Of a stretch of 64,000 bases of DNA, positions 10,373 to 62,765 are shown piece by piece. The notes below the pieces were generated by a model, which made no database searches, was not told the origin of the DNA, and saw only the letters and a program-made list of their open reading frames with translations. Source of the DNA: Acidimicrobiales bacterium. Its GTDB lineage: Bacteria > Actinomycetota > Acidimicrobiia > Acidimicrobiales > Aldehydirespiratoraceae. Numbering within the stretch: the stretch's first letter is position 1; each line of letters opens with the position of its first letter. A program made the translations under genes and the position numbers. The stretch is from the NCBI GenBank assembly GCA_049437325.1, contig JBMTIM010000007.1, forward strand, positions 10,818 to 74,817. Reading direction: 5' to 3'.

Positions 10373-12562
<2,190 letters not shown>

Positions 12563-20364: not shown

Positions 20365-20675
20365 GTCCCTGGGCAACCATCTTCGCGGCCGGGGCCATCA
20401 CCTACCTGACCCGTGCATCCTTCATCGCTGCCGGCGATCGGATCAGGTTGCCACCGGTGGTCGAACGCTCGCTCCACTATGTCGCGCCAGCATCATTCGC
20501 TGCCATCGCCCTGCCTGCGACACTCGGCGGGGATCGCTTCGCAAACGTCGGCGACGACTGGCCGCGTATCGCCGCCGTGTGCGTCGCATCAGCCGTCATC
20601 GTCCGCTGGCGCAACGTCCCCGCCAGCCTGCTGGCCGGGATGGTCACCCTCTGGGTGATCCTCGCTGTCAACTGA
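20361..20675 (+). CDS. azlD: AzlD-family membrane protein
   Basis: The GTG at 20361 overlaps the azlC stop (GTGA). 104 aa, hydrophobic (VSPWATIFAAGAITYLTRASFIAAG...). Confidence 0.7.
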   Translation: MSPWATIFAAGAITYLTRASFIAAGDRIRLPPVVERSLHYVAPASFAAIALPATLGGDRFANVGDDWPRIAAVCVASAVIVRWRNVPASLLAGMVTLWVILAVN

Positions 20676-21153
20676 ACCCGTTGGCCGTGAGATCGAGGCC
20701 CTCGATCCCCGTCCTCGGGTGCATCTCCTCGTAGGTGCGGCTGTAGCCGGTATGGCTGAGCTTCCAACCATCCGCCGTCTTGACATAGCGATCCTCGTAG
20801 AACGCCGCGCCGCGAAGGTTCACACCGAAGTCGGTGATGATCACCTGATCTTCGAGCTTCCACACCCCCGTTGCGGTCCCGTCGGCGAACACATCGATCT
20901 CGGGATGGTGACAGGCGTGGCTCGACAGAAACTCCGGCCGTCCCATGTTCTCGCGGAGAAAGGCGACGATTGCCGCAAGGTCGTCGAAGCTGTACGTACC
21001 ATCGGAATAGGCCGCCGTGCAGTCATCGGTCATGACCGAGGAGAGCTCGTCGAACCGATGTTGATCGAGCAGGCGAAGGTACCCGTACTTGCAGCGCTTG
21101 ATCAGCTCGATCTCGACGAGGAGTTCCGGTGTGACTGGCAAGGGCTCGTGCAT
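20668..21153 (-). CDS. SnoaL-like / NTF2-fold protein
   Basis: 161 aa. It resembles SnoaL-like polyketide-cyclase-fold proteins and is the last gene of the P450 operon. Confidence 0.6.
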   Translation of the reverse strand: MHEPLPVTPELLVEIELIKRCKYGYLRLLDQHRFDELSSVMTDDCTAAYSDGTYSFDDLAAIVAFLRENMGRPEFLSSHACHHPEIDVFADGTATGVWKLEDQVIITDFGVNLRGAAFYEDRYVKTADGWKLSHTGYSRTYEEMHPRTGIEGLDLTANGFS

Positions 21154-22421: not shown

Positions 22422-22898
22422 TCAGGCCAAGAGGTCCCCGAGTTGCCCGGCGATCTCTTCCGGAGAGACGGTCGGACCGAACCGTTGGACGACCTCGCCG
22501 GCAGCGTTCACCAGAAACTTCTCGAAGTTCCATGCAATGTCGGACGTCTCGCCATCACCGGGCTGCTCGGCCTTGAGCCACGTGTAGAGCTCGGCGGCAT
22601 TGTCACCGTTGACATCGATTTTCGCGAACATCGGAAAGTCGACACCGAAGTTCTCGGTGACAAAGACCCGAATCTCCTCGGCCGATCCCGGCTCCTGACC
22701 ACCGAACTGATTGCACGGGAAGGCCAAGACTCGGACGCCGTTGTCATCATGATGAAGCGCACGCAGACCTGCGTACTGAGGCGCGAGGCCTCAAGCGGAC
22801 GCGACGTTGACGACGAGGCAGGCGGCATCGGCGAAATCGGAGAACGAGACCTGTTCACCTTCCAGCGATGCCATTTCGAATGCATGAAATCGGCTCAT
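22422..22898 (-). CDS. gpx: Glutathione peroxidase with an in-frame UGA at the catalytic position (probable selenocysteine enzyme)
   Basis: Hand translation from the ATG at 22898 gives MSRFHAFEMASLEGEQVSFSDFADAACLVVNVASA-TGA-GLAPQYAGLRALHHDDNGVRVLAFPCNQFGGQEPGS. This joins track ORF 22422..22727 in frame. The TGA (22791-22793) aligns with the Cys of the NVASxCGxTPQY motif. The full length is 158 codons, as in typical bacterial GPx. Confidence 0.8.
22757..22793 (-). promoter_or_regulatory. Candidate bacterial SECIS element directly 3' of the gpx UGA
   Basis: The mRNA reads UGA GGC CUC GCG CCU CAG UAC GCA GGU CUG CGU GCG C. It forms an ACGCA/UGCGU stem with a GGUC apical loop. The GCAGGUCUGC core (22763-22772) is identical to the apical part of the E. 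coli fdhF SECIS as I recall it. Confidence 0.65.
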
Positions 22899-22973
22899 GC
22901 GGCGGCAGCGTACCGGCCAACAACGCCTGTCGGCGTCGACCCTCCCACCGATCACCGACGATCACACCCCCGA

Positions 22974-23351
22974 TCACTCGGTCGATGGTGCTGCCCAGTC
23001 GGGATCGTCGAAGCGCTGGATCTCCACGAGATGCCCATCCGGGTCTCGCAGAAAGGCATGGGTGATCCCGAAACGATCGTTGTGGGCAACTGGACGTTCG
23101 AACACCAGCCCGGCAGCGACCAACGCAGCACAGTACGACTCGACGTCGTCTCGGACGAGCGTCACGATGAGCCCCGGTGCCCCCACCGGCCGGTCACTCA
23201 CACAGATACCGAGAAAGCCTGATTCGCTCACCTGGTAGATCCGGCACGATCCTTGGTCGACCACCAGCACCAACCCGAGACAGCCTTCGTAGAAGGCAGC
23301 CGACTCGTCGAGGTCGGTCACCGACAGAAACGTCACGAACGCATCGTTCAT
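22974..23351 (-). CDS. VOC/glyoxalase/bleomycin-resistance-family protein
   Basis: Track ORF 22974..24032, trimmed to the ATG at 23351 (MNDAFVTFLSVTDLDESAAFYEGCLGL...). 125 aa. Confidence 0.7.
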   Translation of the reverse strand: MNDAFVTFLSVTDLDESAAFYEGCLGLVLVVDQGSCRIYQVSESGFLGICVSDRPVGAPGLIVTLVRDDVESYCAALVAAGLVFERPVAHNDRFGITHAFLRDPDGHLVEIQRFDDPDWAAPSTE

Positions 23352-23477
23352 CGTGGCGAACCGTAGCCGGTCGGTTGGGTCTTCCGAGGCGCCCCGTTCC
23401 TCCGACCGTTCCGCCGCCGGTACCCTTACGGTTGCTGGGTTCCCGATCCGCGCTGAGCGGTCGCAGAGGTCGTTGCA

Positions 23478-26400
23478 TTGGATGCCGTTTCGAGCGCTGG
23501 TCACAGTGGTGGACCCCAGTCGGCCGGCACCGCTGGTTCGGTGCCGGTTCCGGTCGCCGTCGGCCCTCGCCGTGAGGCGGTGCACGAACCGACCCGCACG
23601 CAGCGGCTGATCTGGGCGAGTCAGCGTCGCTATGACGGGATCCCACTGGCCAACATGGGAGAGCGGGTGCGTATCCGCGGACCGCTCGACCCTCGTCGTT
23701 TCGTGGCGGCGTTCGATGCAGTCGTCCGAACGGTGGACGTGCTGCGTTCGGTCGTGGAACCCGACGGGTCGCGTATCGGCGTTCTGGCAGCACCCCCGGC
23801 CCAAACGCTCGTACTCGACGTGCCGATCGACGAACTCGAGGAATGGTCGGCCGAACGGATCGCGCAACCCATCGATGCAACCACCTGCGTGTACGACTCT
23901 GTTCTGCTCCACCATGGCGACGACGACTGGACGTGGTGGCTCGACATTCACCACATCGCCATCGATGCGTGGGGGGCAGCACGACTCGCCGAGGCCGTCT
24001 CGACCGCCTACCGCCACGACGGAGCTCCCCACGACGCTGATCTGGACAACGTCGTAACGGGATCATTCTTCGACTCGGTCGGCCCCGACGACGAGGCGGG
24101 CCCAACTCGAGCGGCAGAGTGGGCACAGGACGCACAGACAGCCGGACCGCAAGCCCCACTCACCCCGTACGGACCTCGAGGTGAGAGAACGACACGGGTC
24201 GATCGTTGCCCACTCCCCAGAGACGGCTGGCACGAGTCTCTGGATGAGGCGCTGCAAGGTCCGTACCGGGCCCTTTCTCCAGAACTCAGCCTTCTGGCCC
24301 TGTCGGCAATGGCAACAACGATTGCGATGCGACGGTTCGACGGCCGGTCGAGTGTGGTGGTCGGTGTCCCGGTCCATCATCGATCGGGCCGCTCCGGGAG
24401 CACGGCGATCGGGCCGATGATGGAGCTCTACCCGATGGTCGTCACCTTCGACGACAACGAGACCCATCGGGAGATGTTTGCTCGCACGGTCCGGTCGGTG
24501 ATGCAGGTCTTGCGAAGGGCTCGCCCGGGAGAGAGTCCCGACACGCCGTTCGAGATCGTGTTGAACGTCACCACAGCCCGGTGGGACACCTTCGCCGGCT
24601 ATCCGGCCCGGCGTGACTGGGTGCGATCGGGTCACGTCGAGCCGAACCACGCCATCCGCGTGCAGGTCTTCGACGAATTCGATCCATCGGTCGAGGGTGA
24701 CCACGTCTTGCGTTGGGAGCTGGACCTCAACCGCAGTCTTTCGATCGACGGTTCACACCGTGCCCTGCCGCGGCACTTCGCTGCGATCCTGCAGGGGATC
24801 CTCGACCCGCCTGCCGATCAGGCCGGTCGGACGGCTGTTGTCGACAACCACGAGCGGAAGGATCTTGCGGCGCTCAACCCACGACCGCTGGTTCGCAGCG
24901 TCGATCGCCCGGTCCATGACGTGATTCGTGAGCGCCTGACCGACACCCCCGACGACATCGTGGTCGAACACGGTGCCGTCACCATCACCGGGTCTGAGTT
25001 CGATCGACGAGCCGACGCACTTGCCCACCGACTCGTCGCCGACGGGCTTCGCCTCGGAGATCCGGTCGGACTGCGCATGGGGCGAAGCATCGAGGTCCTG
25101 ATCGCTGTCCACGGAGTGCTGCGAGCCGGTGGGCGGTTCGTGTTTCTCGACCCTGCAGACCCGGTCGGTCGGCACGAGACGATTGCCGCCGATGCGGGTC
25201 TGTTCACGATTCTCGATCGCCTCCCGTCCGAGGCGGCCACCGATTCAGACACCACCGACGCTCCCGGCCTCCCGACGGTCAACCTCGACGACGGGGCATA
25301 CATCCTGTACACGTCGGGCTCGACCGGGCTGCCGAAAGGGGTGCCGATCTCTCATCGGGGACTCGCCGACTACCTCGACTTCGCGGTCGAGTCGTACTGC
25401 GACCCGGCGAACCCTCCGTGGGTGGCACTGCACTCGGCACTCGTGTTCGACCTGTCCATCACCAGTGTTTTCCTTTCGATGCTGACCGGTGGTCGAACGG
25501 TCGTCTTCGACACCGATCCGGTCGAGGCGCTCGGCCAGATCAGTCGAGATCCCCGAATCACGTTCCTGAAGGGCACGCCGTCACAGCTCGAGATCCTCAC
25601 CCGCGTGGCGGATGGCCCACTGTCGATCGACACCTTCGTCGTGGGCGGAGAAGCGTTCCGACGCCCTGTGGCAGACCGGGTCCGTGTCCAATGTGCTGGA
25701 ACGGTCCGGATCTTCAACGAGTACGGCCCCACCGAAGCGGTGGTCGGCTGCATGATCCATGAGTACGACCCTGCGAGCGACATCGGTGTCGACGTTCCGA
25801 TCGGGCATGCTGCGCCAGGTAGCCGTCTCGTCGTCCTCGACGCGCTGGGTGAGGTTGCACCACCGGGCGTCTGGGGCGAACTCTTCGTGCACCGCCCCGG
25901 GATGGCGACCGGCTATCTCAACCGTCCGGAGCTGAGCCTCGAGCGGTTCGGGCCGCCGCCTGTCACCGACGACGATCGACTGGTGCTCGGCGACGACGAG
26001 ACCCTCCTTCATTCCACGGTCTGGTATCGCACCGGCGACCGCGTCCGAGTGGAACGTCTCGGTGTACTCGTGTACGGCGGCCGAGAGGACGACCAACTCA
26101 AGGTCAACGGCATCCGACTCGAGCCGGCCGAAGTCGAAGCCGCTCTGGTCTCCCATCCGGGGATCGACAACGCACTGGTGCGGGTGTGGCAGCCCACCGA
26201 CGCGGCCAACCGCATCGGTGTTCGACGGTGTGCACAGTGCGGTCTCGGTGTCGACGTCCCCGGGGTGGACATCGACGCCCTCGGTGTGTGCTCCGTGTGT
26301 CGGCAGTTCGAAGAAGTCGAACCACAGACGAGAGATTGGTTCCGAACCCCCGCCGACCTCGACGACCGCCTACGAACGGCTCGCGAGCGACGCACCGGGG

Positions 26401-29400
26401 ACTACGACTGCCTGCACCTGCTGTCGGGGGGGAAGGACTCGACCTATGCCCTGTATCAACTCGTCGAGCGGGGCTGGCAGGTCCACGCCCTGACCCTCGA
26501 CAACGGGTTCATCTCCGAGGGCGCGAAAGAAAACGTTCGACGGAGCATCGCCGACCTGGGGATCACCCACGAGTTCGTAACGACCGACGCAATGAACGCC
26601 ATCTTCGCCGACAGCCTCGATCGCTACTCCAACGTCTGCCAAGGTTGCTACAAGACGATCTACACCCTCGCCGTTGCCCGAGCCGAAGCGCTTGGCATCC
26701 CGGTGATCGTCACCGGCCTGTCGCGCGGGCAGTTCTTCGAAACCCGACTCGTCCCCCACCAATTCGAAGCGGGCCGTTTCGATCCCGCCGCCATCGACGC
26801 CACCGTGCTCGAGGCTCGACGGGTGTACCACGCAACCCACGATGCCGTGACCGAACTGTTGCCGGAGCAACGCGTCTTCGACGACCCGACCGTGCTCGAC
26901 CGCCTCGAGTTCCTGGACTTCTACCGCTACGTCGACGTGCCCTTGCACGAGCTCTACGACTTCCTCGAGCACCGTGCTCCATGGGTCCGGCCAGCCGACA
27001 CAGGACGATCGACGAACTGTCTCATCAACGTGGCCGGTATCCGAGTCCACCAGCAAGAGCGCGGCTACCACAACTACGCCGAGCCCTACAGCTGGGACGT
27101 CAGACTCGGCCACAAGACCCGCGACGAAGCCCTCGAGGAACTCGACGATCTCATCGATGAGACCGAGGTCACCGCCATTCTCGGGGAGATCGGATACGAA
27201 CCGAAGACGCAAGGCGTCCTGACCGCGTGGTACCAAAGCGTCGACGGCGTCGATCTCGACCCTGACGAACTTCGCCGATCGCTGCGCGACCGGCTGCCGG
27301 CCCACGCCATTCCCTCTGCATTCGTGCGGCTCGACGAGGTACCACTCGCTGCGAGCGCCAAAGCAGACCCCGATCTTCTTCCCGCCCCGACCCGCTTCCA
27401 CCGTCGAGGTGGAGCCGGTGTGCGGCCCGAGACCCCGACCGAGGAACGGCTCGTCACCATCTGGGGCGAGCTTCTCGGACTCGACTCGGTCGGGATCACC
27501 GACGACTTCTTCGACCTCGGGGGCGCCTCACTCGACGCCCTCGCTGTCGTCGCCCGAATCGACGCCGCGTTCGGCACGGATCTCCCCGACGCTGCGGTGT
27601 TCCGAGCCCGGACGATCGCAGAACTTGCCGCCATCGTGGATGGTGCCGAAGCGATCGATGCCCCGACACCTGTCGACCTACCCGACGGCCCGCTCCCCCT
27701 CTCCCCCGGAGAGGAGTACATGCTCTTCGAGTACCGGACCGACCCGATCAATCCCCGGTACAACGTCACCCGGCTCTACACCCTCGAAGGTCACGACGAG
27801 CCGATCGACATCGAGCAGCTCGAAACCGCACTTCGCGATGTGGTCATGCACCACGAAACCCTGCACACCTGTTTCGACCGCAACCGCACAACCCTCGACC
27901 GCACGACTGCCCTGCGCTTCGTCGACCTCGGCGCAGTGCGCCACGACGAACTCGACGACTGGTCGACCCGAATCCAGCGCGAACCATTCGACCTCGACGC
28001 CGGACCGCTGGTGCGGGCCCACGTCGGTGATCTCGGGGACGGGCGCGTTGCACTCTTCCTCGGCATGCATCACATCGTTCTCGGATCAGGCACGTTCGAC
28101 ACGTTCTGGAGCCAGATCACCCGCCGCGTGGCAGGGGAGGCCCTCCCCGACCTCCCGGTCAGCTACGCCCACCACAGCTTGCAGCAGCGGCGCCGGCACA
28201 CCGAAGACGACACCAGTGCACGATTCTGGGCCGACAGCTTCGGCGAGGCCGAAGCGGCATCGCTCCGGCTCGCCGTCGACGACACCGAACCCGACGGGTA
28301 CCTCGTCGCCTCGTCATCGGTCACTGTTGCGGAGATGAACGCCGTGGGGCGCACGGCGTTCTCGACCGCCCTGGCATCGGCCGGCATCGTCGTGTCGACG
28401 TTCTCCGGGTCGGGACAGGTCCAGATCGGGATCACAGCGTCGTCGAACGATCGCCCCGACACCGCCGAGGTAATCGGCTACTACCTGAACCCGATCGCAC
28501 TCTCGCTCTCGGTCGAGGCCAACGACACGTTCACCGACTTGGTCGGTCAGGCTGCCGACACGATGGAGGCGGCACTACCGCACCGGACGTACCCCTTCGC
28601 CTGGGTCGTTCGCGACGCCCGCGACGCCGGCCGCCCCGTACCCGACGTGTCGGTGATGCTTGCCTACGAGCGCATCGACCAGCCGACCTATCCGGGTGCA
28701 ACCGCCGAGCAACGGATCCTCGCCACCGGCTCGTCGGTCGCCGATGTCACCTTCTTCGTCCAAGAGCGCGGGGACGACATCCGCCTGGCCCTCGAGTACC
28801 GCGGTTCGGTCGTGAGCGAGCAGGCTGCCGAGCGACTGCTCGCCGCCTTCCGGACCACGCTGGAAGACGGTGTCCGGAATCCGACCAGGCACATCGCCCA
28901 CCTCACCGAACCCCATCGGGGAGATGATCTCGATGGGCCAGCGCTCGACGACACCGCACTGGTGCTGGAACGCCTGATCGGCCACATCGACACGACTCCG
29001 ACTGCAGCTGCAGTGGCGGACGCGACCGGCCGTGTACTCGACTACCGCAGTCTCGGGCGAGCCGTCGATGCCACAGCGGCCGCAGTGATCACAGCGCTCG
29101 ACGGCGTGCAACCGAAGAGGGTCGGTGTGGCGGTGGCCCGATCGATCGAGATGGTCGTCGGACTCTACGGAGCTCAGGTCGCCGGAGGTGCCGCCGTCCC
29201 GCTCGATCCAACCCTGCCCGACACCCGTCTCGCTGCCATCGCCAACGCAGCCGAGCTCGATGTCGTCATCACCGACGATCCGGACCGCCACCGTCGGTGG
29301 GCACCGCACACCGTGGCCGTTGCTGGTCCGACCGAAGGTGATACGGCCTCACTGGTCGAGCGGGTGCGCACGATCGACGGATCCGACGACAGTTACGTGA

Positions 29401-31496
29401 TCTTCACGTCGGGTTCGACGGGCGAGCCTCGCGGTGTTGCGGTGACCCACGCCAACCTGGCTGCGAGCACGGCGGCACGGGATGTCTGGTTCGACGGACG
29501 TCCGGATCGTTTCCTGGTCACCTCGAGTCCGGGATTCGACAGTTCAGTCGTCGGCCTCTACTGGCCTCTCGCCACCGGCGGCACCGTGGTCGTGCCCGGC
29601 GACGACGACGTGCGCAACGTCGATCGCCTCGGATCACTGATCGAGTCGCTCGACATCACCCACACGCTGATGGTGCCGAGCCTTGCCAGCGCTCTGCTCG
29701 AACGAGCGCCGACCGCCGTCGCCGGACTCACGGTGGCCATCGTGGCCGGCGAAGCATGTCCACCGGCAGTGGTCGAACGCCATCACGAAATCGCTCCAGC
29801 TGTTGCCCTCATCAACGAGTACGGTCCCACCGAGGCCACGGTCTGGTCGACGGTGCATCGACTCACCCACGGGGACGACCCCGTCCCGATCGGGCGCCCG
29901 ATTCCAGGTGCCACGGCCCGCGTCGTCGGTGCCGACGGCTCCGCGTCACCGGCGGAGGTGGCGGGTGAGTTGTGGATTGCGGGTCCCGGTGTGACGGCCG
30001 GGTACCTGAACGACCCGGACGCCACCGCAGAGCGATTCGTGGAGGCCGACGGTCGCCGGTGGTACCGCACCGGCGACCTCGTGCGCGCGGTCGGCGGCGT
30101 GCTTCGCTTCCTCGGACGGGTCGATGATCAGCTCAATGTGGGTGGCGTTCGACTCGAACCGGCCGAGGTCGAACGATTGCTCGACACCATCGACGGCATC
30201 ACCGCATCAGTGGTCGTCGCCGTCGGCGAGCCGCCCCTCTTGGTCGCCCACCTCGAGACGGATGGTCCGATCGAGGAGGCACACCTCCGTGCCCATCTCG
30301 GTGAGCGGCTGCCAGCGACTGCCGTTCCCCGCCGATTCGTCGCCCACCCCTCCCTGCCTCGGACCCAGAACGGCAAACTCGACCGCCATGCCGCCGCCGA
30401 GCTCGCAGTGCCGAGCCCGTCGGCCGCCCCGGAGATCACTGGGGGGACCGCAACCGAGCGAGCGGTGCTCGAAGCCTGGAGCACGGTGCTCGCCCCCACC
30501 CAGATCGACCCTGACACCGACTTCTTCGCGGCCGGGGGAGACTCGCTCACCGCGGTGGCGCTCGTCACCCGAATCGGTGATGCGCTCGGACGCACGATTC
30601 CGATCTCGACCCTGCTCGCCGGCCCATCGCCAACTGCGATGGTTCAACTCCTCGAGGCGGGCGATCGATCGTCGAGACCCTTCACCACCGTGCGAATGCA
30701 GTCCGGTGCACCCGACAGTCCTCTCGTACTCATCACACCCGCCTGGTTCAGCATTTTCGGCTACAGGGACATGGTCGAGGCATTCTCCGCCGACATCGAG
30801 GTCATCGCTCTCGACTACAACCCCGAGGCCAGCATGGCCCCGATCCTGACGGTCCCTCAGATCGTGACGGCGATGGAACCAGCCCTCGACGACCTTCCCA
30901 GTGGGAAGCGACCGGTGGTGGTGCTGGGCTGGTCGATCGGCGGTGTCGTTGCAGCCGAACTCGCCACCCGACTGCTCGAAGCGGGACGGCCGGTCGATCG
31001 CCTGGTACTCGTCGACACCATCTTCCCGACCGTCGACCGGGCACAGTGGTCGGTGCGGTGGTCGTATCGATGGTGGACGGCCAAGTCGTTGCTTCGCCCG
31101 GAGGGCGTGGCTGAACTACGCGAAGAAGTGTGGAGGTTCATCCGGCGACGGTTACCCACACCGATCGATCGAGCGATCCGGTGGGTGACTCGGGAGGCGT
31201 CGACGACGCCCGACGACGCAGCGCCCGCGGCCCCCGCACAGGCCGCGGTCGTCGCTGCGCCCGTGGGAGAGGTTCCCGAACAGGCGAACTACTTCGAGCC
31301 TCGACCACTCGAACTGCCGGTCACCTTCTATCGTGCATCCGGATCGAATCCAGGACACACCAGCAAGCTGTGGCGCACCATCACACCTGACTTTGACGAG
31401 GTCGTCGTCAAAGGGAGGCACAGGACTGTCAATTCGATCATGGATGCGGGTCGGGTCGGTCAGATCACCGCCGACATCGAACGACGGCTGCGCTGA
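23478..31496 (+). CDS. Non-ribosomal peptide synthetase, two modules: C-A(interrupted)-T-C-A-T-TE
   Basis: 2672 aa. C1: HHIAIDAWG (from 23949). A1: YILYTSGSTGLPKGV (25299), FNEYGPTEA, YRTGDRVRV, GREDDQLKVNGIRLEPAEVE, then the insert, then LPAHAIPSAF (A9) and PLAASAKAD (A10 Lys). T1: DLGGASLDAL (Ser codon 27528). C2: MHHIVLGSG (28065). A2: YVIFTSGSTGEPRGV (29394), INEYGPTEA, YRTGDLVR, LPRTQNGKLDR. T2: AAGGDSLTAV (Ser codon 30543). TE: GWSIGG (Ser codon 30933). The TTG start at 23478 is uncertain; in-frame GTGs lie downstream. Confidence 0.95.
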   Translation: MDAVSSAGHSGGPQSAGTAGSVPVPVAVGPRREAVHEPTRTQRLIWASQRRYDGIPLANMGERVRIRGPLDPRRFVAAFDAVVRTVDVLRSVVEPDGSRIGVLAAPPAQTLVLDVPIDELEEWSAERIAQPIDATTCVYDSVLLHHGDDDWTWWLDIHHIAIDAWGAARLAEAVSTAYRHDGAPHDADLDNVVTGSFFDSVGPDDEAGPTRAAEWAQDAQTAGPQAPLTPYGPRGERTTRVDRCPLPRDGWHESLDEALQGPYRALSPELSLLALSAMATTIAMRRFDGRSSVVVGVPVHHRSGRSGSTAIGPMMELYPMVVTFDDNETHREMFARTVRSVMQVLRRARPGESPDTPFEIVLNVTTARWDTFAGYPARRDWVRSGHVEPNHAIRVQVFDEFDPSVEGDHVLRWELDLNRSLSIDGSHRALPRHFAAILQGILDPPADQAGRTAVVDNHERKDLAALNPRPLVRSVDRPVHDVIRERLTDTPDDIVVEHGAVTITGSEFDRRADALAHRLVADGLRLGDPVGLRMGRSIEVLIAVHGVLRAGGRFVFLDPADPVGRHETIAADAGLFTILDRLPSEAATDSDTTDAPGLPTVNLDDGAYILYTSGSTGLPKGVPISHRGLADYLDFAVESYCDPANPPWVALHSALVFDLSITSVFLSMLTGGRTVVFDTDPVEALGQISRDPRITFLKGTPSQLEILTRVADGPLSIDTFVVGGEAFRRPVADRVRVQCAGTVRIFNEYGPTEAVVGCMIHEYDPASDIGVDVPIGHAAPGSRLVVLDALGEVAPPGVWGELFVHRPGMATGYLNRPELSLERFGPPPVTDDDRLVLGDDETLLHSTVWYRTGDRVRVERLGVLVYGGREDDQLKVNGIRLEPAEVEAALVSHPGIDNALVRVWQPTDAANRIGVRRCAQCGLGVDVPGVDIDALGVCSVCRQFEEVEPQTRDWFRTPADLDDRLRTARERRTGDYDCLHLLSGGKDSTYALYQLVERGWQVHALTLDNGFISEGAKENVRRSIADLGITHEFVTTDAMNAIFADSLDRYSNVCQGCYKTIYTLAVARAEALGIPVIVTGLSRGQFFETRLVPHQFEAGRFDPAAIDATVLEARRVYHATHDAVTELLPEQRVFDDPTVLDRLEFLDFYRYVDVPLHELYDFLEHRAPWVRPADTGRSTNCLINVAGIRVHQQERGYHNYAEPYSWDVRLGHKTRDEALEELDDLIDETEVTAILGEIGYEPKTQGVLTAWYQSVDGVDLDPDELRRSLRDRLPAHAIPSAFVRLDEVPLAASAKADPDLLPAPTRFHRRGGAGVRPETPTEERLVTIWGELLGLDSVGITDDFFDLGGASLDALAVVARIDAAFGTDLPDAAVFRARTIAELAAIVDGAEAIDAPTPVDLPDGPLPLSPGEEYMLFEYRTDPINPRYNVTRLYTLEGHDEPIDIEQLETALRDVVMHHETLHTCFDRNRTTLDRTTALRFVDLGAVRHDELDDWSTRIQREPFDLDAGPLVRAHVGDLGDGRVALFLGMHHIVLGSGTFDTFWSQITRRVAGEALPDLPVSYAHHSLQQRRRHTEDDTSARFWADSFGEAEAASLRLAVDDTEPDGYLVASSSVTVAEMNAVGRTAFSTALASAGIVVSTFSGSGQVQIGITASSNDRPDTAEVIGYYLNPIALSLSVEANDTFTDLVGQAADTMEAALPHRTYPFAWVVRDARDAGRPVPDVSVMLAYERIDQPTYPGATAEQRILATGSSVADVTFFVQERGDDIRLALEYRGSVVSEQAAERLLAAFRTTLEDGVRNPTRHIAHLTEPHRGDDLDGPALDDTALVLERLIGHIDTTPTAAAVADATGRVLDYRSLGRAVDATAAAVITALDGVQPKRVGVAVARSIEMVVGLYGAQVAGGAAVPLDPTLPDTRLAAIANAAELDVVITDDPDRHRRWAPHTVAVAGPTEGDTASLVERVRTIDGSDDSYVIFTSGSTGEPRGVAVTHANLAASTAARDVWFDGRPDRFLVTSSPGFDSSVVGLYWPLATGGTVVVPGDDDVRNVDRLGSLIESLDITHTLMVPSLASALLERAPTAVAGLTVAIVAGEACPPAVVERHHEIAPAVALINEYGPTEATVWSTVHRLTHGDDPVPIGRPIPGATARVVGADGSASPAEVAGELWIAGPGVTAGYLNDPDATAERFVEADGRRWYRTGDLVRAVGGVLRFLGRVDDQLNVGGVRLEPAEVERLLDTIDGITASVVVAVGEPPLLVAHLETDGPIEEAHLRAHLGERLPATAVPRRFVAHPSLPRTQNGKLDRHAAAELAVPSPSAAPEITGGTATERAVLEAWSTVLAPTQIDPDTDFFAAGGDSLTAVALVTRIGDALGRTIPISTLLAGPSPTAMVQLLEAGDRSSRPFTTVRMQSGAPDSPLVLITPAWFSIFGYRDMVEAFSADIEVIALDYNPEASMAPILTVPQIVTAMEPALDDLPSGKRPVVVLGWSIGGVVAAELATRLLEAGRPVDRLVLVDTIFPTVDRAQWSVRWSYRWWTAKSLLRPEGVAELREEVWRFIRRRLPTPIDRAIRWVTREASTTPDDAAPAAPAQAAVVAAPVGEVPEQANYFEPRPLELPVTFYRASGSNPGHTSKLWRTITPDFDEVVVKGRHRTVNSIMDAGRVGQITADIERRLR
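26220..27273 (+). other. PP-loop ATP-pyrophosphatase / amidotransferase-like domain embedded in NRPS adenylation domain 1
   Basis: Zinc-ribbon CAQCGLGVDVPGVDIDALGVCSVCRQF, then DYDCLHLLSGGKDSTYALYQLVERGWQVHALTLDNGF (SGGxDS PP-loop; Ser codon at 26424), CQGCYKT and a C-terminal WDVRLGHKTRDEALEEL. The pattern matches my recollection of the WbpG/PseA-type N-acetyl-sugar amidotransferase family. Confidence 0.7.
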
Positions 31497-47584: not shown

Positions 47585-47642
47585 GGACCCTCCCGATGAT
47601 TCGACACGGGCGCCGCCGGCGATGATGCCGGGGCACGAAGCG

Positions 47643-47716
<74 letters not shown>

Positions 47717-49863: not shown

Positions 49864-52389
49864 TCAGTCAGCGGTGGGCTCGTCCTCCGTGGATCTGTCG
49901 GCACCGTCGTCGACGATCGCATCCTCAGCGCCGCTGACCAATGCGATCGAGGCCACCGAATCGTCTGCGTCGGGAGTGATGACCTTTACACCACTGGCTG
50001 CGCGACCCTGCCGGGAGATGTCAGCTGCAGTGGTTCGGATCAGGACACCCTTGCGAGTGACCGCCAGAATCTCGTCGTCGTCTTCCACGACAAGTGTGCC
50101 GACAACCGACCCCCGCCCCTCGACGATCTTGATGCCGACCACACCCATTCCACCTCGACCCTTTGTCGGATAGCCGTCGACGTCGGTCCGCTTGCCGAAT
50201 CCCTGTTCGGTGATGTGGAGCAGGGAGGCGCCGTCTCGCGCAATGTCGCACGCAACCACAGCATCGCTCGGCTTCTTGAATTTGAGACCCACGACGCCCG
50301 CTGCATTGCGGCCCATTTCACGGACCTGATCTTCTCTGAAACGGATGGTTTGACCGAACCGACTCGACAGCAGGATGTCGTACACGCCGTTGGTCGGGAT
50401 GACTTCCACCAGTTCGTCGTCGTCGTTCAGTTTGATCGCGATCAAGCCGGCGCGCAGCGACGAGTCGTAGGCGTTGAAGCGGGTCTTCTTGACGCGACCC
50501 TTGGCCGTCGCAAAGAAGAGGTATCGCTTCGTCTCGTAGTCGCGAGTGTCGATGATTGCTTGAATCGTTTCACCTTCGTGCAGTGGGAGCAGGTTGACGA
50601 TCGCCGTGCCTCGCGACGTTCGACTCGCAACCGGTATCTCGTGTGCCTTCAGGCGATAGACCCGCCCACGGGTCGAGAAGAACAACAGATAGCTGTGGGC
50701 GGTGGTTTGGATCAGATGGGTGACGGTGTCCTCGTCTTTGAGTTTGGTCCCTGCGATACCGCGACCCCCGCGGCCCTGCGACCGGAACTCATCTGCCGGT
50801 GTGGTCTTCACATAGCCAGTCGCCGTCATCGTGAACACCAACGGGTCGTCGTCGATGAGGTCCTCGATATTGAACTCGCCTGGATCGATCTCGAGACTCG
50901 AACGCCGATCCTCCCCGAAGTCATCAGCGATCGCTTGGAGTTCCTCGGTGATGACGGAGCGGAGTCTGGCGTCGTCGCCGAGGATCGCTTCGAGTTCACC
51001 AATGGTCTCACGAAGTTTCCCGGCCTCCTCCTCGAGGTCCGTGCGACCAAGCCGGGTCAAGCGGCCGAGTTGCATGTCGAGGATGTGGTTGGCCTGCACT
51101 TCGGAGAAGGCAACGGCTTCGCCCCCACCCGCTGGAACGATGCCGGCCATGAGCGCCTCTCTGGCGGCTCCCCGATCTTCGCTCGACCGAATCGTCGCGA
51201 TGATCTCGTCGATCAGGTCGAGTGCATTCAACAGCCCCTCGACGATGTGAAGTCGCTTCTGGGCCTGATCCAGACGATATTCCGACCGGCGGGTGACAAC
51301 TTCGATCTGATGATCGACGTAGGCCACCAGCGCGTCGCGCAACGTGAGTGTGCGAGGTACGCCACCAACCAGAGCGACCATGTTCACCCCGAAGCTCGTT
51401 TGGAGTGGCGTCGCTTTCCAGAGATTGTTCAGCACCACTTCCGGATTGGCATCGCGTTTGAGGGTGATCACGAATCGCGTGTCATCGCCGGACGACTCGT
51501 CATTGACATCGGCGATCCCGTCGAGTTCGCGGCTGTTGACCAATTCGGAGATCTTGCGGGCCACAGCCCCTGCCGACACCTGGTACGGGAAGGCGGTGAC
51601 CACCAATGCTTGCCGTTGACCTCGCTCGACCACATCGACCGACGCTCGCATTTTCACCGATCCGCGTCCGGTTCGATAGGCCGATTCGATGCCGACGCGG
51701 CCGAGAATCTGACCACCGGTCGGAAAGTCGGGTCCCTTGACGAACTCCATGAGTTCCTCTGTTGTTGCGTCGGGATTGGCGAGCAAGTGGGTGACGGCCG
51801 CACACACCTCGTTGAGATTGTGGGGCGGGATGTTGGTGGCCATACCCACCGCAATGCCCTGACTGCCGTTGACCAACAGGTTTGGAAAGCGAGCAGGCAA
51901 CACCGCTGGTTCGGTGAAGTCGCCCGAATAGTTGTCGATGAAATCGACCGTGTCTTCATCGATGTCGGCCAGCATCTGCATCGCTAGCCGGTCGAGTCGG
52001 GATTCGGTGTAACGCGCAGCAGCCGGAGGATCTTCGGGAGATCCGTAGTTTCCGTGAAAGTCGATCAGCGGATGGCGCAAGGAGAAGGGTTGAGCCATCC
52101 GAGCCAGTGCGTCGTAGATCGCACTGTCGCCGTGGGGATGGAAGCGTGCCATCACGTCGCCGGTGACACGGGCACATTTCACATGGGCTCGATCAGGGCG
52201 AAAGCCTTGGTCGTACATCGACCACAGAATGCGGCGGTGGACCGGTTTCAGGCCGTCACGAGCATCCGGAAGCGCGCGGCTGATGATGACCGACATTGCG
52301 TAGTCGAGAAAGGAGCTTTCCATCTCCTCTTGGATCTCGATGATCGTGACATCTTCAGGTTGTGTGTCTTCGACGGGTGTGTCTGACAT
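49864..52389 (-). CDS. gyrA: DNA gyrase subunit A
   Basis: 841 aa. It contains [12 protein letters not shown], the [10 protein letters not shown] active-site Tyr region and a C-terminal beta-pinwheel. Confidence 0.97.
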
Positions 52390-52440
52390 CTCTGTGCGTG
52401 TACCTCTCTGCGCCGGTGTCGCCGGTTGGTGAGACCTCGA

Positions 52441-54498
52441 CTAGAAGTCCAAGTTCCGAACTTCGCGAGCATTGGTGACGATGAAGTTCTTGCGCTGCTC
52501 GACGTCGTCACCCATGAGAATCGACATGATCTCATCGGCGATCGCGGCCTGTTCGACCGACACCTGCAAGAGCGACCGAGTCGCAACGTCCATCGTGGTG
52601 TCGCGCAACTCGTCCCAGTCCATTTCACCCAAACCCTTCAAGCGGGCGAAGTCCTTCGTGTAATTGGGCCGTTCAGCCAGGAAGGCTTCCTTGGCCACGT
52701 CGTCTTTGAGGTACACCGTCTCTTTGTTGGAGACCTTCGTGCTGTACAGGGGTGGCTGGGCGATGTAGACGTAGCCCGCCTCGACCAGAGGACGCATCTG
52801 ACGGAAGAAGAAGGTCAGCAGCAGGGTACGAATGTGGCTGCCGTCGACGTCGGCGTCAGCGAGCAGGATGACCTTGTGGTAGCGAGCCTGTGTGATGTCG
52901 AACTCGTCGGCAAACCCGGCTCCGATGGCCGTGATGAGGGTCTGCACCTCGTTGTTTTTCAGCATCTTGTCGATACGGGCTCGTTCGACGTTCAGGATCT
53001 TGCCGCGAATCGGCAGGATCGCCTGGGTTTCAGGATCTCGAGCCCGCACGGCGGAGCCACCGGCCGAGTCCCCCTCCACAATGAAGAGTTCCCGCCGCTC
53101 GGGTTCCTTGGCCGAACAATCCTTGAGTTTGTCGGGCATCCCGGCACCATCGAGCAGGGACTTCGATCGGATCGCCTTTCGAGCATCGGCGGCAGCGACT
53201 CGGGCACGGGCTGCGTTCGTTGCTTTTGTGACGATCGCCTTGCCCTCCCCCGGATGCTCCTCGAGCCAATCCGCCATTCGCTCGTTGGTGACCTTCTCGA
53301 CGAGCGATCGCATCGACACGTTTCCAAGTTTGGATTTGGTCTGACCTTCGAACTGGGGTTCGCCGATGCGGGCGGAAATGATCGCAGTAAGTCCTTCCCG
53401 AATGTCTTCACCGGTGAGGTTGTCGTCTTTTTCTTTGAGCAGCCCTTTGTCTCGGGCGTAGGCGTTCACCGTGCGGGTGACCGCAGTACGAAATCCCTGC
53501 TCGTGCATACCACCTTCGAGCGTGGCGATGCCGTTGGCGAAACTGTGCAGTCCGTCGGTGTTGAACCCGGTGTTCCACTGGAACGCAATCTCGACCTCGT
53601 GTGGGTTGTTGTCGATCTGCTCGGTGCCCGAGAAATAGCCCACCGCGGTGAACAGCGCTTCTTTGGACGAGTTCACATGACGAACGAAGTCGATGATGCC
53701 CCCGTCATATTTGAACGTCACCCATCCGTCAGGATCGTCGGTGACGACGGTGGAACTCTCCCGGAGATCGCGCACCCGTATCTCGAGTCCGCGGTTGAGG
53801 AACGCCATCATCTGGAACCGTTCGACAAGCGTCTGGAACCGAAAGTCGATCTCGTCGAAAATCAGTGGATCTGGCCAGAAACGAACGGTGGTACCGGTGC
53901 GAGGCTCTCCTGCGTCGCTGCGGGGTGATGCACCGATGACTGCCAGGCGCTCCTGCAGTTCGCCGCCATTGCCGAACACCATCGCGTGTCGATCACCGTT
54001 GCGATCGATCTCGACCTGGACCCGGCGAGACAGGGCATTGACGACAGAGATTCCGACCCCGTGCAGGCCACCGGAGACCTTGTAGCCGTCACCACCGAAC
54101 TTGCCGCCGGCGTGAAGAACGGTGAGCACCACCTCGGCAGCGGACAGGTCTTCGTATTTTGGGTGCCTGTCGACCGGGATACCACGGCCGTCGTCGCTGA
54201 CCTCACACGAGCCATCGGCCAGAATCGATACGTCGATACGGGTGCAGTGACCAGCCATGGCCTCATCCACCGAGTTGTCGACGACCTCCCAGACGAGATG
54301 ATGCAACCCCGTCGGACCAGTCGATCCGATGTACATCCCAGGTCGTTTTCTGACCGCTTCGAGACCCTCGAGAACGGTGATGTCCTGTGCTCCGTACGAC
54401 GATGATTCAGTGGTGGTCAACGCGGACTCCTGCCCAGCCGCTGCATGTCCCATCTCCGATGATCGATCAGCGGGATCTCGGTCATCGTCGTCGCTCAC
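52441..54498 (-). CDS. gyrB: DNA gyrase subunit B
   Basis: 685 aa with a GTG start 8 nt after GGAG. It contains GLHHLVWEVVDNSVDE, LHGVG, EGDSAGG and PLRGKILNVE-type motifs. Confidence 0.97.
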   Translation of the reverse strand: MSDDDDRDPADRSSEMGHAAAGQESALTTTESSSYGAQDITVLEGLEAVRKRPGMYIGSTGPTGLHHLVWEVVDNSVDEAMAGHCTRIDVSILADGSCEVSDDGRGIPVDRHPKYEDLSAAEVVLTVLHAGGKFGGDGYKVSGGLHGVGISVVNALSRRVQVEIDRNGDRHAMVFGNGGELQERLAVIGASPRSDAGEPRTGTTVRFWPDPLIFDEIDFRFQTLVERFQMMAFLNRGLEIRVRDLRESSTVVTDDPDGWVTFKYDGGIIDFVRHVNSSKEALFTAVGYFSGTEQIDNNPHEVEIAFQWNTGFNTDGLHSFANGIATLEGGMHEQGFRTAVTRTVNAYARDKGLLKEKDDNLTGEDIREGLTAIISARIGEPQFEGQTKSKLGNVSMRSLVEKVTNERMADWLEEHPGEGKAIVTKATNAARARVAAADARKAIRSKSLLDGAGMPDKLKDCSAKEPERRELFIVEGDSAGGSAVRARDPETQAILPIRGKILNVERARIDKMLKNNEVQTLITAIGAGFADEFDITQARYHKVILLADADVDGSHIRTLLLTFFFRQMRPLVEAGYVYIAQPPLYSTKVSNKETVYLKDDVAKEAFLAERPNYTKDFARLKGLGEMDWDELRDTTMDVATRSLLQVSVEQAAIADEIMSILMGDDVEQRKNFIVTNAREVRNLDF

Positions 54499-54702
54499 GG
54501 TTCATCTCCAAAACCCCTCTGTGAGCAGGCAAAATCGAGGGTTTCAGGGGTTCTCGGCGCCCGTGTCGAGCGCTGGTCGAGAGGGCCGTTCACGGTCCTG
54601 ACATTCTACCAGTTACACGGGTGTGATTCGTGTCAGACGAGGCCCGTGATTCCGGCTTGCAGACCCGGGTTTTAGGGTCGTCTCGGTGACCCTGAAACCC
54701 GG
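54499..54702 (-). promoter_or_regulatory. gyrB leader carrying four copies of a GGGUUU(Y)AGGG-type element that can form alternative stems
   Basis: Forward-strand copies: CCAAAACCCC 54508-54517, GGGTTTCAGGGG 54538-54549, GGGTTTTAGGGT 54667-54678 and ACCCTGAAACCC 54689-54700. A 15-bp hairpin (54665-54702, one mismatch) spans the upstream stop codon. Confidence 0.4.
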
Positions 54703-54992
54703 ACGTGAACGCTGGTGATCCGCTCCGATCCAGTTGTCTCGGCCAGGCGTTCGAGGACCTGTTTCTCGAGCCACCGGAACTCGTTGGCCCACACCGAGTC
54801 GTCGGCCGCCACCACCAGCCGAGCCCCCTCGATCACGGCGGGCCGCGTGTGTCGGGCTAGATCGGGACCAACAATGGAACTCCAGCCCCGGAAGATCCCG
54901 TCGAGCACATCCACCGACGGCGCGTCGAGATTCCCGAGTAGATGATCGAGACTCGTTGCAATCGGACGTGGGTCGCTGTCTCGTCGAGTCAT
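54672..54992 (-). CDS. DUF721-family protein (DciA-like)
   Basis: 106 aa at the conserved position between recF and gyrB, with a 4-nt overlap with recF. The sequence pattern is LLGNL...WSSIVGPDLARHTRPAVIEGARLVVAADDSVWANEFRW. Confidence 0.75.
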   Translation of the reverse strand: MTRRDSDPRPIATSLDHLLGNLDAPSVDVLDGIFRGWSSIVGPDLARHTRPAVIEGARLVVAADDSVWANEFRWLEKQVLERLAETTGSERITSVHVRVSGSPRRP

Positions 54993-56074
54993 GGAACGAC
55001 CGATGTCACGTCACCACGGTGAACGCGGATCACCTGGTCGGGCTGAGCCCCCGGCGGAAGTTCGGCCGCCGTCGTGAGGATGTGTTGCCCGGCTGGGAGC
55101 GCTTCGAGGAGTGCGGCAGCACGATTCGGATCCAGCTCGGAAAACACGTCATCGAGCAGCAGCACCGGTTCAGCGATGCCCGCAGCTCGGACGATGCCGT
55201 CAGCCGCGAGCCGCAGAGCGAGCGCAAGCGAACGCTGCTCGCCCTGCGATGCATGTGTCCTGGCCGGGAGTCCACCAATGCACAGCAGCACGTCATCTCG
55301 GTGAGGGCCAACCGACGTGATTCCGCGCCGCACATCACTGTCGCGAGCTCGTACGAGTGCGTCAGCGAGCGATCCGTCCCACGACGACTGATAGACCGCA
55401 CTGACGTCTGCTGATTCACGCGACACAGCGTCATAGGCGCTTCCGAGCGTCGTCGCCATCTCGGCCAGCAGCTCGGTTCGTGCTGCCAGCAGGCGGTCGC
55501 CCAACTCCGCAAGTTTGGTGTCCCACACATCGAGGGTGAAGGCAGCATCCGCATCGAGGCGCCCATGTACGCCTCGCAGCAATGCATTGCGCTGTTTCAG
55601 AACCCGTTCGACATCACCCCTGAGCGAACGGTTTCTGGGCTGACGGGCAGCAACAGCGGCGTCCAGCCATCCTCTGCGCATCGTCGGACCACCCTTCACC
55701 AGTTCGAGGTCATCCGGTGAGAACACCGTTGTGTGCAACACGCTCGCAAGATCGCTCATCCGCTGCACTCGTTGTCGATTGACCTGCACCCTGTTTCGTC
55801 CTGCTCGCTGGACTGCTGCTTCGATCAGTTGCTCTCGCCCGTCGTCGGCTTCGACCGTTGCACGCGCAATCGCAGTGTCAGCTCCAACGCGGATCAATGC
55901 GTCGTCGACCGCACCGCGAAAGCTCCCGAGTCCTGCCAACCATCCGATGGCCTCGATCAAGTTGGTCTTTCCGTGTCCGTTTTCGCCAATGATCGCGGTG
56001 AGTCCATCGCAAAACGAGACGTTCGCCTGTTCGTACGACCGCCAGTCGACGAGCGACAGCGTTCGGATCTTCAC
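54989..56074 (-). CDS. recF: DNA replication/repair protein RecF
   Basis: 361 aa with Walker A GENGHGKTNLIEAI and the ABC-type signature SQGEQRSLALALRLA. Confidence 0.95.
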   Translation of the reverse strand: MKIRTLSLVDWRSYEQANVSFCDGLTAIIGENGHGKTNLIEAIGWLAGLGSFRGAVDDALIRVGADTAIARATVEADDGREQLIEAAVQRAGRNRVQVNRQRVQRMSDLASVLHTTVFSPDDLELVKGGPTMRRGWLDAAVAARQPRNRSLRGDVERVLKQRNALLRGVHGRLDADAAFTLDVWDTKLAELGDRLLAARTELLAEMATTLGSAYDAVSRESADVSAVYQSSWDGSLADALVRARDSDVRRGITSVGPHRDDVLLCIGGLPARTHASQGEQRSLALALRLAADGIVRAAGIAEPVLLLDDVFSELDPNRAAALLEALPAGQHILTTAAELPPGAQPDQVIRVHRGDVTSVVP

Positions 56075-56080
56075 CGAGGC

Positions 56081-57181: not shown

Positions 57182-57415
57182 GGTGCGATTACTTCTCCTG
57201 GTTGGATGGAACTCAGATAATAGAAGTTCATAGGGCTTGTGGATTGTGGATGGTGGTGTTTTTTGTTTGGAATTCCAGGGAAGTGCTGTCCCCAGCGTCT
57301 CCCTGTTCGTGCACACCCTCGAGGTGGAGTCGGAGGTGGGAGGGGAAACTGGTGATGTTGTCCCCGGCATTTCCCGACGAGCTCCCCCTCGTGTCCCCAG
57401 GGTGTTGCACAGGGA
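57182..57415. other. dnaA-dnaN intergenic DnaA-box cluster (candidate oriC module)
   Basis: TGTGGATTG 57238-57246 and TGTGGATGG 57245-57253 are complements of xxATCCACA. Three TGTCCCC-type 9-mers lie at 57286-57294, 57358-57366 and 57391-57399. TGTTGCACA lies at 57403-57411. A/T-rich patches lie at 57214-57236 and 57254-57275. Confidence 0.6.
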
Positions 57416-62666: not shown

Positions 62667-62682
62667 CGTTCCACGTGAAACA
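62667..62682. promoter_or_regulatory. parS centromere-like site upstream of parA
   Basis: CGTTCCACGTGAAACA matches TGTTNCACGTGAAACA at 15 of 16 positions. Confidence 0.75.
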
Positions 62683-62765
62683 TGGAGGGGGTCCTTGACC
62701 TCATCCAGGAAAGCGGCGAACATACGCTCCTCTACTGCAAAGGAGACGCCGTGGGCGATGCCACC

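Follow-up and report, generated by a model that had tools for sequence, protein, structure and literature searches.

A glutathione peroxidase gene with a probable UGA-encoded selenocysteine and an fdhF-like SECIS hairpin in an Acidimicrobiales-related bacterium

Results

Gene structure and family membership

The DNA analysed here, referred to below as the window, is a stretch of 64 kb with a GC content of about 65%, which includes a chromosomal origin region (dnaA, dnaN, recF, gyrB and gyrA at 49.8-58.8 kb, and parA at 62.7 kb). On its minus strand, a complete coding sequence of the glutathione peroxidase (GPx) family occupies positions 22422..22898, in one frame that starts at the ATG 22898-22896 and terminates at the TGA 22424-22422. 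This frame has 158 sense positions and a sole internal stop, the TGA at 22793-22791, and its translation reads MSRFHAFEMASLEGEQVSFSDFADAACLVVNVASA*GLAPQYAGLRALHH...GDLLA*. By alignment of the catalytic column, the internal codon (22791..22793, minus strand) is residue 36 and stands at the peroxidatic position, where it is read here as selenocysteine (Sec); the gene is accordingly called Sec-GPx. The mechanical list of open reading frames cuts it into two pieces, 22791..22955 and 22422..22727. An earlier examination of the letters and this list (the sequence-only reading) had proposed a probable selenoprotein split by the ORF track, in a single frame running from 22898 to 22422 and broken by the TGA alone. 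The minus-strand translation bears out the frame, and the comparative data described below support the proposal in favour of Sec.

When U is replaced by C, residues 4-109 of the product match the whole Pfam GSHPx profile (PF00255; positions 1-108 of 108) at E 1.3e-36, with a score of 124.9 bits where 27 is the cut-off, and solved GPx structures align with residues 4-157, the best being 2v1m (E 2.7e-40). In the 2v1m alignment the TGA of the window falls in the catalytic Cys/Sec column; the earlier assignment of the TGA in LVVNVASA[TGA]GLAPQYAGL to the peroxidatic Cys/Sec was correct. The translation contains FPCNQFGGQEPG and IAWNFEKFLV and so shows the catalytic residues Gln (FPCNQF) and Trp-Asn (WNFEKF); the GPx catalytic tetrad consists of Sec/Cys, Gln (FPCNQF), Trp and Asn (WNF). 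An N-terminal MSRFHxF is kept among the relatives of the gene. One residue close to the UGA is peculiar to the window: sequence comparison identified codon 39 (22782..22784, minus strand), GCG for Ala, as a window-specific change of the Thr of the UxxT motif. Thr was found at this position in 11/11 conspecific contigs, 14/14 other Sec-type and 69/69 Cys-type sequences, and the window reads U-G-L-A where its lineage has the motif. Ala39 is either a real variant, which may impair activity, or an error of assembly.

Directly downstream of Sec-GPx lies a cytochrome P450 gene (21168..22415, minus strand; Pfam p450), called as 395 aa in conspecific contigs and probably co-transcribed with Sec-GPx. 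The third gene of this same-strand run encodes a SnoaL_4 domain (20668..21153, minus strand; Pfam SnoaL_4, E 9e-25), and the order GPx-P450-SnoaL_4 is common to 11 conspecific contigs. Upstream, on the opposite strand, is a large NRPS gene, and katG is found about 10 kb from Sec-GPx. In one of the related loci, L005, a mycothiol-dependent formaldehyde dehydrogenase gene adjoins Sec-GPx.

The catalytic codon among relatives

The closest relatives of the gene in genome databases belong to metagenome-assembled genomes (MAGs) labelled Acidimicrobiales, Acidimicrobiaceae, Ilumatobacteraceae or Actinomycetota, and the window population itself is represented by 12 further contigs from independent assemblies, at 99.1-99.6% DNA identity. 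TGA occupies the catalytic column in 10/11 conspecific contigs and in the related loci L001-L012, L014 and L095. Other species with TGA number 13 (57-81% protein identity) and are for the most part MAGs of Acidimicrobiales; ten of these (L001-L010; 60-81%) are Acidimicrobiales or Actinomycetota species, while the carriers beyond Actinomycetota are a Myxococcota MAG (L011) and two Gammaproteobacteria MAGs (L012 and L014). L095 is a contig from Antarctic seawater. In 69 homologues the same column holds TGC or TGT. Upstream (35 codons) and downstream (122 codons) of the TGA alike, the protein is conserved in one frame and synonymous sites vary freely; the invariant Ala at -3, for instance, is encoded in four ways and the invariant Ser at -2 in five, drawn from both TCN and AGY. 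An in-frame UGA aligned with a redox Cys (69 Cys and 15 Sec homologues), between flanks that are both conserved, is the pattern by which a bacterial selenoprotein is recognised.

Gene finders commonly divide selenoprotein genes of this type in two. Among the best 120 database homologues, 30 are fragments of 101-124 residues that begin past the UGA position; the truncated homologues inspected start two or more codons downstream of it, and in one source the UGA is rendered as Trp.

Two relatives carry other codons at this site. The conspecific contig L081, 99.58% identical to the window at the DNA level, has TGT together with the same downstream hairpin (described below). A neighbour-joining tree places it inside the Sec clade, and it is without the resolving Cys of Cys-type enzymes, which together indicate that TGA is the ancestral state; the most plausible account of its TGT is a very recent change from Sec to Cys, which would be segregating in the population. 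The second, the relative L094, has CGA (Arg) at the catalytic codon, with the hairpin intact.

A hairpin downstream of the UGA

As observed in both minimum-free-energy (MFE) and consensus folds, the RNA past the UGA forms a SECIS-type apical hairpin, GUACGCA-GGUC-UGCGUGC (22759..22776, minus strand), with its 5' arm at 22776-22770, its loop at 22769-22766 and its 3' arm at 22765-22759. The hairpin starts 14 nt after the UGA, the decamer GCAGGUCUGC 18 nt after it and the loop 21 nt after it. The sequence-only reading had located GCAGGUCUGC at this distance of 18 nt, inside a stem ACGCA-GGUC-UGCGU, and this was confirmed. It had also suggested that the stem could be extended by GU/GC and by GCGC/GCGC. 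The former extension holds, and with it the MFE helix comprises 7 bp closed by the GGUC loop; the latter is not supported, in that the upstream segment pairs with the UGA instead. This segment folds into UGAGGC/GCCUCA, and its first G is specific to the window and absent from every relative. The resulting small 5' helix, which holds the UGA (loop CUCGC; 22777..22793, minus strand; MFE fold), is less conserved than the apical hairpin: 92.9% of its cells are paired, and its A-U pair is gone in 4/14 sequences. Part of it may simply follow from the codons for Gly and Pro-Gln.

A stem-loop that follows soon after the UGA and carries G/U in its apical loop (here 7 bp and GGUC) is what is expected of a bacterial SECIS element. 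The 45-nt segment made up of the UGA and the hairpin gave z = -2.3, with 2/200 shuffles folding equally well, and the 21-nt hairpin alone gave z = -3.05; a 66-nt segment around the hairpin was unremarkable against shuffles (z = -0.47). The exact 14-mer of the hairpin has one occurrence in the window. Rfam searches of the whole window at gathering thresholds, and of 22650-22900 under permissive settings, returned only a tRNA-Ile and two chance-level matches to non-SECIS families.

The decamer had been likened to the apical stem and GGUC loop of the Escherichia coli fdhF SECIS, and GCAGGUCUGC is indeed identical in that element. The 45-nt fdhF SECIS, which includes the decamer of the window, occurs with 100% identity in the fdhF genes of over 5,400 E. 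coli genomes. The two elements share this decamer, which is made up of a GGUC tetraloop and the same three closing pairs, and an in-frame location just 3' of the UGA. They differ in that a U bulges out beneath the three apical pairs of the experimentally defined fdhF element, the 7-bp helix of the window being continuous; in that the loop starts 21 nt after the UGA in the window as compared to 18 nt in fdhF, i.e. one codon further; and in that fdhF forms one long hairpin of 40 nt, in place of which the window has a separate small lower helix. The host proteins are unrelated.

Conservation of the hairpin at synonymous sites

Most of the hairpin is supplied by codons +5 to +10 (CAG TAC GCA GGT CTG CGT). 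Across 14 species-level Sec sequences each of these positions uses one codon, with the exception of one CGC, and it is the last two bases of the 3' arm that vary. At invariant residues, single-codon use was seen at 5/6 positions within the hairpin as compared to 1/43 outside it (Fisher p = 1.9e-5), and on average 0.17 sequences depart from the majority codon in the hairpin, against 4.6 elsewhere in the gene. In the window, GCA accounts for 17% of Ala codons, CGT for 15% of Arg, GGT for 28% of Gly and CTG for 33% of Leu, and the joint probability of the six hairpin codons, given their amino acids, is 0.0013. The earlier suggestion that the hairpin codons are atypical for this genome was thus right in part: GCA and CGT are minor codons here.

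The stem is paired in 98% of cells across the 14 species and, two single mismatches aside, its only variation is a one-sided U-A/U-G change (9 versus 5). Compensatory double changes were sought in the stem over these 14 species and none were found. Because the stem hardly varies, covariation analysis is uninformative here; support for the RNA element therefore comes from the freezing of synonymous sites and from the strict association of TGA with the hairpin.

This association was evident in both directions. The sequence-only reading had called for a comparison with Cys-type orthologues, with TGC or TGT in place of TGA and loss of the hairpin as the outcome to look for, and both features hold in 68 such homologues from many phyla, all of which are without the hairpin. 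Cys-type genes with the same PQYAGL peptide use other codons for it (GCC, GCG, GGC, GGG, CTC etc.), and the Arg of the 3' arm (CGU), present in 15/15 Sec sequences, is replaced in Cys-type homologues by E or Q. Conversely, a scan of metagenome contigs for the 20-mer CCNCAGTACGCAGGTCTGCG yielded at least 120 stretches, and 119 of those listed were GPx genes. Among the matches listed, the catalytic codon was TGA in 119/119 of these genes and Cys in none, and the contigs that host them range in GC from 0.45 to 0.73. The frozen synonymous sites and the joint conservation of TGA and hairpin support selection on RNA structure, as had been proposed, rather than a recent nonsense mutation. A close relative with the same hairpin and a Cys codon had been named beforehand as evidence to the contrary; L081 is formally such a case, yet it is 1 allele of 12 and, given its place in the Sec clade and its missing resolving Cys, does not show the hairpin to be a by-product of coding.

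Loss of the resolving cysteine

Where a resolving Cys is present, it lies about 46 residues after the peroxidatic residue. In this column 15/15 Sec sequences have V or A (Val in the window), and 68/69 Cys-type sequences have Cys; the sole Cys-type sequence without it is L081, all other Cys-type sequences (68/68) having it. The resolving Cys that marks a 2-Cys GPx of the Gpx3/BtuE type is thus missing from the product of the window, and the Sec clade to which it belongs is monophyletic.

According to established GPx enzymology, an external thiol acts directly on the selenenic acid of vertebrate GPx1-4 to reduce it. With the resolving Cys missing, the same is most likely true of the Sec clade, and an intramolecular-disulfide, thioredoxin-dependent cycle is probably not used by its members. 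Actinomycetota typically use mycothiol rather than glutathione.

Search for the Sec machinery and for further selenoproteins

No selA, selB, selD or tRNA-Sec gene was found in the 64-kb window. The flanks of related loci and 670 kb of metagenomic flanks contained no selA, selB or tRNA-Sec, and selD in L005 only. The E. coli proteins SelA, SelB and SelD, used as tblastn queries on the window and every locus, yielded the L005 selD and GTPase-domain noise only, and ARAGORN detected no tRNA-Sec in the window, 15 related loci and 120 metagenome loci. The selD of L005 lies 8.6 kb from Sec-GPx, is fused to an N-terminal oxidoreductase domain and scores 276 bits against TIGR00476 (cut-off 125). The homologues of this SelD are mostly fused SelD proteins of the Rhodobacteraceae type; the one contig inspected, P0177, belongs to an unrelated organism and has selU next door. 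In Actinomarinales, another order of Acidimicrobiia, selA, selB, selC and selD are reported in 84/84 complete genomes (preprint 10.64898/2026.04.03.716425).

A second selenoprotein was also looked for in the window. Two crude scans, for in-frame TGA codons with coding-like GC3 on both sides and for TGA followed by a hairpin with a GGUC or GGUU loop, returned the GPx site and, beyond it, only 5-bp chance hairpins antisense to real genes.

Discussion

Taken together, these results indicate, with a probability that we put at roughly 90%, that positions 22898-22422 of the minus strand are one functional gene for a thiol peroxidase of the GPx family, with a UGA-encoded Sec as its peroxidatic residue. 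One other explanation is that the gene is a pseudogene, in which a TGC or TGT of a Cys-type GPx has recently mutated to TGA and from which at most fragments are made. The contig of 99.6% identity with TGT would fit this, as would the splitting of Sec-GPx by gene callers and the unusual change of Thr to Ala that the window allele carries three codons on. However, in both halves of the gene the protein is constrained, in one frame, and synonymous sites drift freely, which is incompatible with a pseudogene and also with two separate products; TGA is shared by 11/12 conspecifics, 13 other species and 119/119 hairpin-bearing environmental genes among the matches listed; and the TGT allele, placed inside the Sec clade and without the resolving Cys, points to TGA as the older state. 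Comparative data already contradict a pseudogene, and we consider it extremely improbable. The TGA might also be an error of sequencing or assembly for TGT or TGC, in line with the one conspecific contig that reads TGT. Since the TGA recurs in ten independent assemblies, in 13 other species and in 119 metagenomic loci among the matches listed, such an error is contradicted already by the replicate assemblies, and its probability is close to nil.

The hairpin, for its part, might merely result from the coding of QYAGLR and have no function as RNA, the UGA being read through or terminating independently of it. A by-product of this kind would be in keeping with the family-wide conservation of the PQYxGL peptide in GPx, with the lack of compensatory covariation in the stem and with the retention of the hairpin beside a Cys codon in L081. 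It would not account for the Cys-type genes, which encode PQYAGL with many codons and never form the hairpin, nor for the fixation of four- to sixfold degenerate codons as GCA, GGT, CTG and CGT across hosts with a GC of 0.45-0.73, two of the four being minor codons in the window; and only the Sec clade has the Arg of the 3' arm (15/15, against E or Q elsewhere). We attach scarcely any probability to it. A last scenario, which we regard as highly unlikely, is that the UGA is decoded as an amino acid other than Sec, by near-cognate reading as Trp or Cys or by a lineage-specific reassignment, or that the Sec machinery has been lost in the strain. Apart from the selD of L005, no gene of the machinery turned up in the window, the related loci or the metagenomic flanks, and the Sec/Cys and Sec/Arg alleles might reflect a relaxed need for Sec. 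But TGA is the terminator of Sec-GPx itself and of 23/28 window genes examined, and UGA is therefore not reassigned; moreover, the site is the redox-active position at which Sec is known in the GPx family, the local element matches a SECIS that binds SelB, and the Sec machinery exists in the class (Actinomarinales).

Standard bacterial Sec insertion is accordingly the reading best supported by the analysis. By analogy with fdhF, the hairpin GUACGCA-GGUC-UGCGUGC would bind SelB carrying Sec-tRNA(Sec) as the ribosome nears the UGA, and SelB would deliver Sec to the A site, outcompeting release factor 2. Translation would then run on to the true terminator, the UGA at 22424-22422. In the finished enzyme, peroxide would oxidise the Sec to a selenenic acid, which an external thiol would reduce. 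The cis elements of this scheme are present and selectively maintained; SelB and the other trans factors we infer.

Sec-containing members of this family are known from other bacteria. The GPX-like family (PF00255, UxxT) is listed among the prokaryotic selenoprotein families 'predicted with high confidence' (PMC13188914); a single bacterial example of Sec-GPx, from Treponema denticola, the species in which the family was first predicted, was on record in 2006 (PMC1794560), and the Global Ocean Sampling data contained 40 Sec and 3,287 Cys forms of GPx-like proteins (PMC2398784). Like this family, the gene of the window has the PF00255 domain, places Sec at the peroxidatic residue and carries its SECIS hairpin within the coding sequence, just past the UGA. 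It differs in its host, an Acidimicrobiales-related member of Actinomycetota, and in the UGLA of the window. The prokaryotic selenoprotein literature consulted here describes neither a near-invariant hairpin across lineages nor the loss of the resolving Cys, nor Sec/Cys and Sec/Arg alleles.

With the thioredoxin-dependent Cys-type GPx enzymes (yeast Gpx3/Hyr1, plant GPx5 and bacterial enzymes of the BtuE type) the product shares the fold and the catalytic Gln, Trp and Asn, and it is 45-60% identical to many bacterial members; these enzymes have a peroxidatic and a resolving Cys, whereas the Sec clade has Sec and Val or Ala. The best matches among solved structures were animal Sec-GPx enzymes of the GPx4 type (Schistosoma mansoni GPx, 2v1m, and human GPX4; E 1e-40 to 1e-33), which are likewise short, monomer-type GPx proteins with Sec in the same column. 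Enzymes of the animal GPx4 type are, like the Sec clade, without a resolving Cys. The eukaryotic SECIS has another structure and lies in the 3' UTR, whereas that of the window is inside the coding region.

Sec-GPx-like proteins are already established in prokaryotes, and the known picture of bacterial Sec decoding is unchanged by this gene. What goes beyond the routine is a SECIS that is the same letter for letter across very different genomes, the coupling of Sec with the loss of the resolving Cys, and natural alleles with Sec, Cys and Arg. The bins that contain Sec-GPx are labelled Actinomycetota, Myxococcota and Gammaproteobacteria. A possible interpretation, which we put forward tentatively and hold to be on the doubtful side, is that these genes form a distinct, horizontally spread '1-Sec' subfamily of GPx, without a resolving Cys and with a near-invariant SECIS (in contigs of 45-73% GC), in which Sec segregates against TGT and CGA in the wild, and which in mycothiol-using Actinomycetota might act as a mycothiol-dependent peroxidase instead of one that relies on glutathione or thioredoxin. 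If this is true, the subfamily would be a natural system in which to measure the fitness of Sec versus Cys; the TGA, TGT and CGA alleles are in any case a natural handle on the exchange of Sec and Cys.

Annotators should treat the gene as a single selenoprotein of 158 residues, the truncation of its homologues being systematic. Its hairpin is a very clean case of an RNA signal overriding codon choice within a coding sequence, and the way in which Sec goes together with a lost resolving Cys mirrors the division of animal enzymes into Sec-GPx and Cys-GPx. As for the organism, the sequences indicate that an Acidimicrobiales-related marine lineage may use selenium in its defence against peroxide.

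Variation at the catalytic codon

The codon read as Sec in the glutathione peroxidase-family (GPx) gene (22422-22898, minus strand; UGA at 22791-22793, codon 36) was found in two other forms. A contig of the window's own population, L081 (ENA ERZ27313181 k141_150515; 99.58% DNA identity), carries TGT, encoding Cys, at L081:3464-3466; in this allele the SECIS hairpin (22759-22776, minus strand, in the window) is intact and the second, resolving Cys typical of Cys-type GPx is absent. The population appears to be polymorphic for Sec and Cys at this codon. In the relative L094 (ENA ERZ23499074 scaffold_14248; 80% protein identity), the SECIS is likewise intact and the catalytic codon is CGA (Arg; L094:1589-1591), to be explained by an inactivating change from TGA to CGA or else by an error in the sequence.

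Two further codons of the gene were seen to vary. Codon 39 (22782-22784) is GCG (Ala) in the window only, while all other sequences have Thr at this position, the T of the UxxT motif of prokaryotic GPX-like selenoproteins. At codon 143 (22470-22472) the population displays three alleles: the window has ACC (Thr), ten contigs share ATC (Ile), and L081 carries AGC (Ser).

SECIS core and selD in related genomes

The SECIS core, TACGCAGGUCUGCG, was detected a second time, letter for letter, in an Acidimicrobiales MAG (L007:2386-2399, minus strand), where it is intergenic, lying directly after a TAA stop and ahead of an unrelated gene; no UGA was found upstream of this copy. By a rough count, chance alone would give approximately 0.01 exact matches to the core in all the sequence that was searched.

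In another related MAG, a selD gene (L005:12-1421, plus strand), which scores 276 bits with TIGR00476 (cut-off 125), is located 8.6 kb upstream of that genome's own Sec-GPx gene. Its product carries a pyridine-nucleotide-disulfide oxidoreductase domain as an N-terminal fusion, and the nearest database relatives of this SelD are mostly fused proteins of the Rhodobacteraceae type. Immediately 3' of the GPx gene in the same locus is a gene for a mycothiol-dependent formaldehyde dehydrogenase.

Genomic surroundings of the GPx gene

Directly upstream of the GPx gene, a structural polymorphism was observed within the one population (window 22919-31496 compared to L082-L084, L087-L089 and L193). In the window, L085 and L086, a glyoxalase-domain gene is followed by a non-ribosomal peptide synthetase (NRPS) gene; in other contigs this place is taken by Cupin_8, an Acyl_transf_3 gene and a methyltransferase, and then an NRPS that is only ~80% identical over 4.3 kb, with flanks that are >99% identical. 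The NRPS of the window (23478-31496, plus strand; 2,672 residues) contains two condensation-adenylation-PCP modules along with a thioesterase. Its residues 977-1085 weakly match the PP-loop ATPase families ThiI and QueC, suggestive of an insert that would be unusual for an NRPS.

A katG gene encoding a catalase-peroxidase of 717 aa (10409-12562, plus strand; Pfam 'peroxidase' in conspecific contigs) lies ~10 kb away from the Sec-GPx gene, so that two peroxide-detoxifying genes share this neighbourhood.

The window also covers the region around the chromosome's origin of replication (49864-58789 on the minus strand; 62682-63542), comprising dnaA (57416-58789), dnaN (56081-57370), recF (54989-56074), gyrB (52441-54498) and gyrA (49864-52389), all on the minus strand, together with parA (62682-63542). 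The cumulative GC skew reaches its minimum at ~56 kb, where the skew switches from negative to positive, and the GC content of the window, ~0.65, falls to ~0.59 past 50 kb. The sole tRNA of the window, and its sole Rfam match, is a tRNA-Ile (GAU) at 47642-47716 on the minus strand.

Annotation of the selenoprotein in databases

In the JGI translation of L095, a contig from Antarctic seawater, the TGA is rendered as W. Fragments of 101-124 residues make up 30 of the 120 closest homologues (protein database matches P0004-P0117), and many of them begin with 'MTPQYAGLR', two codons past the UGA. These fragments show that the Sec-GPx selenoprotein is systematically mis-annotated.
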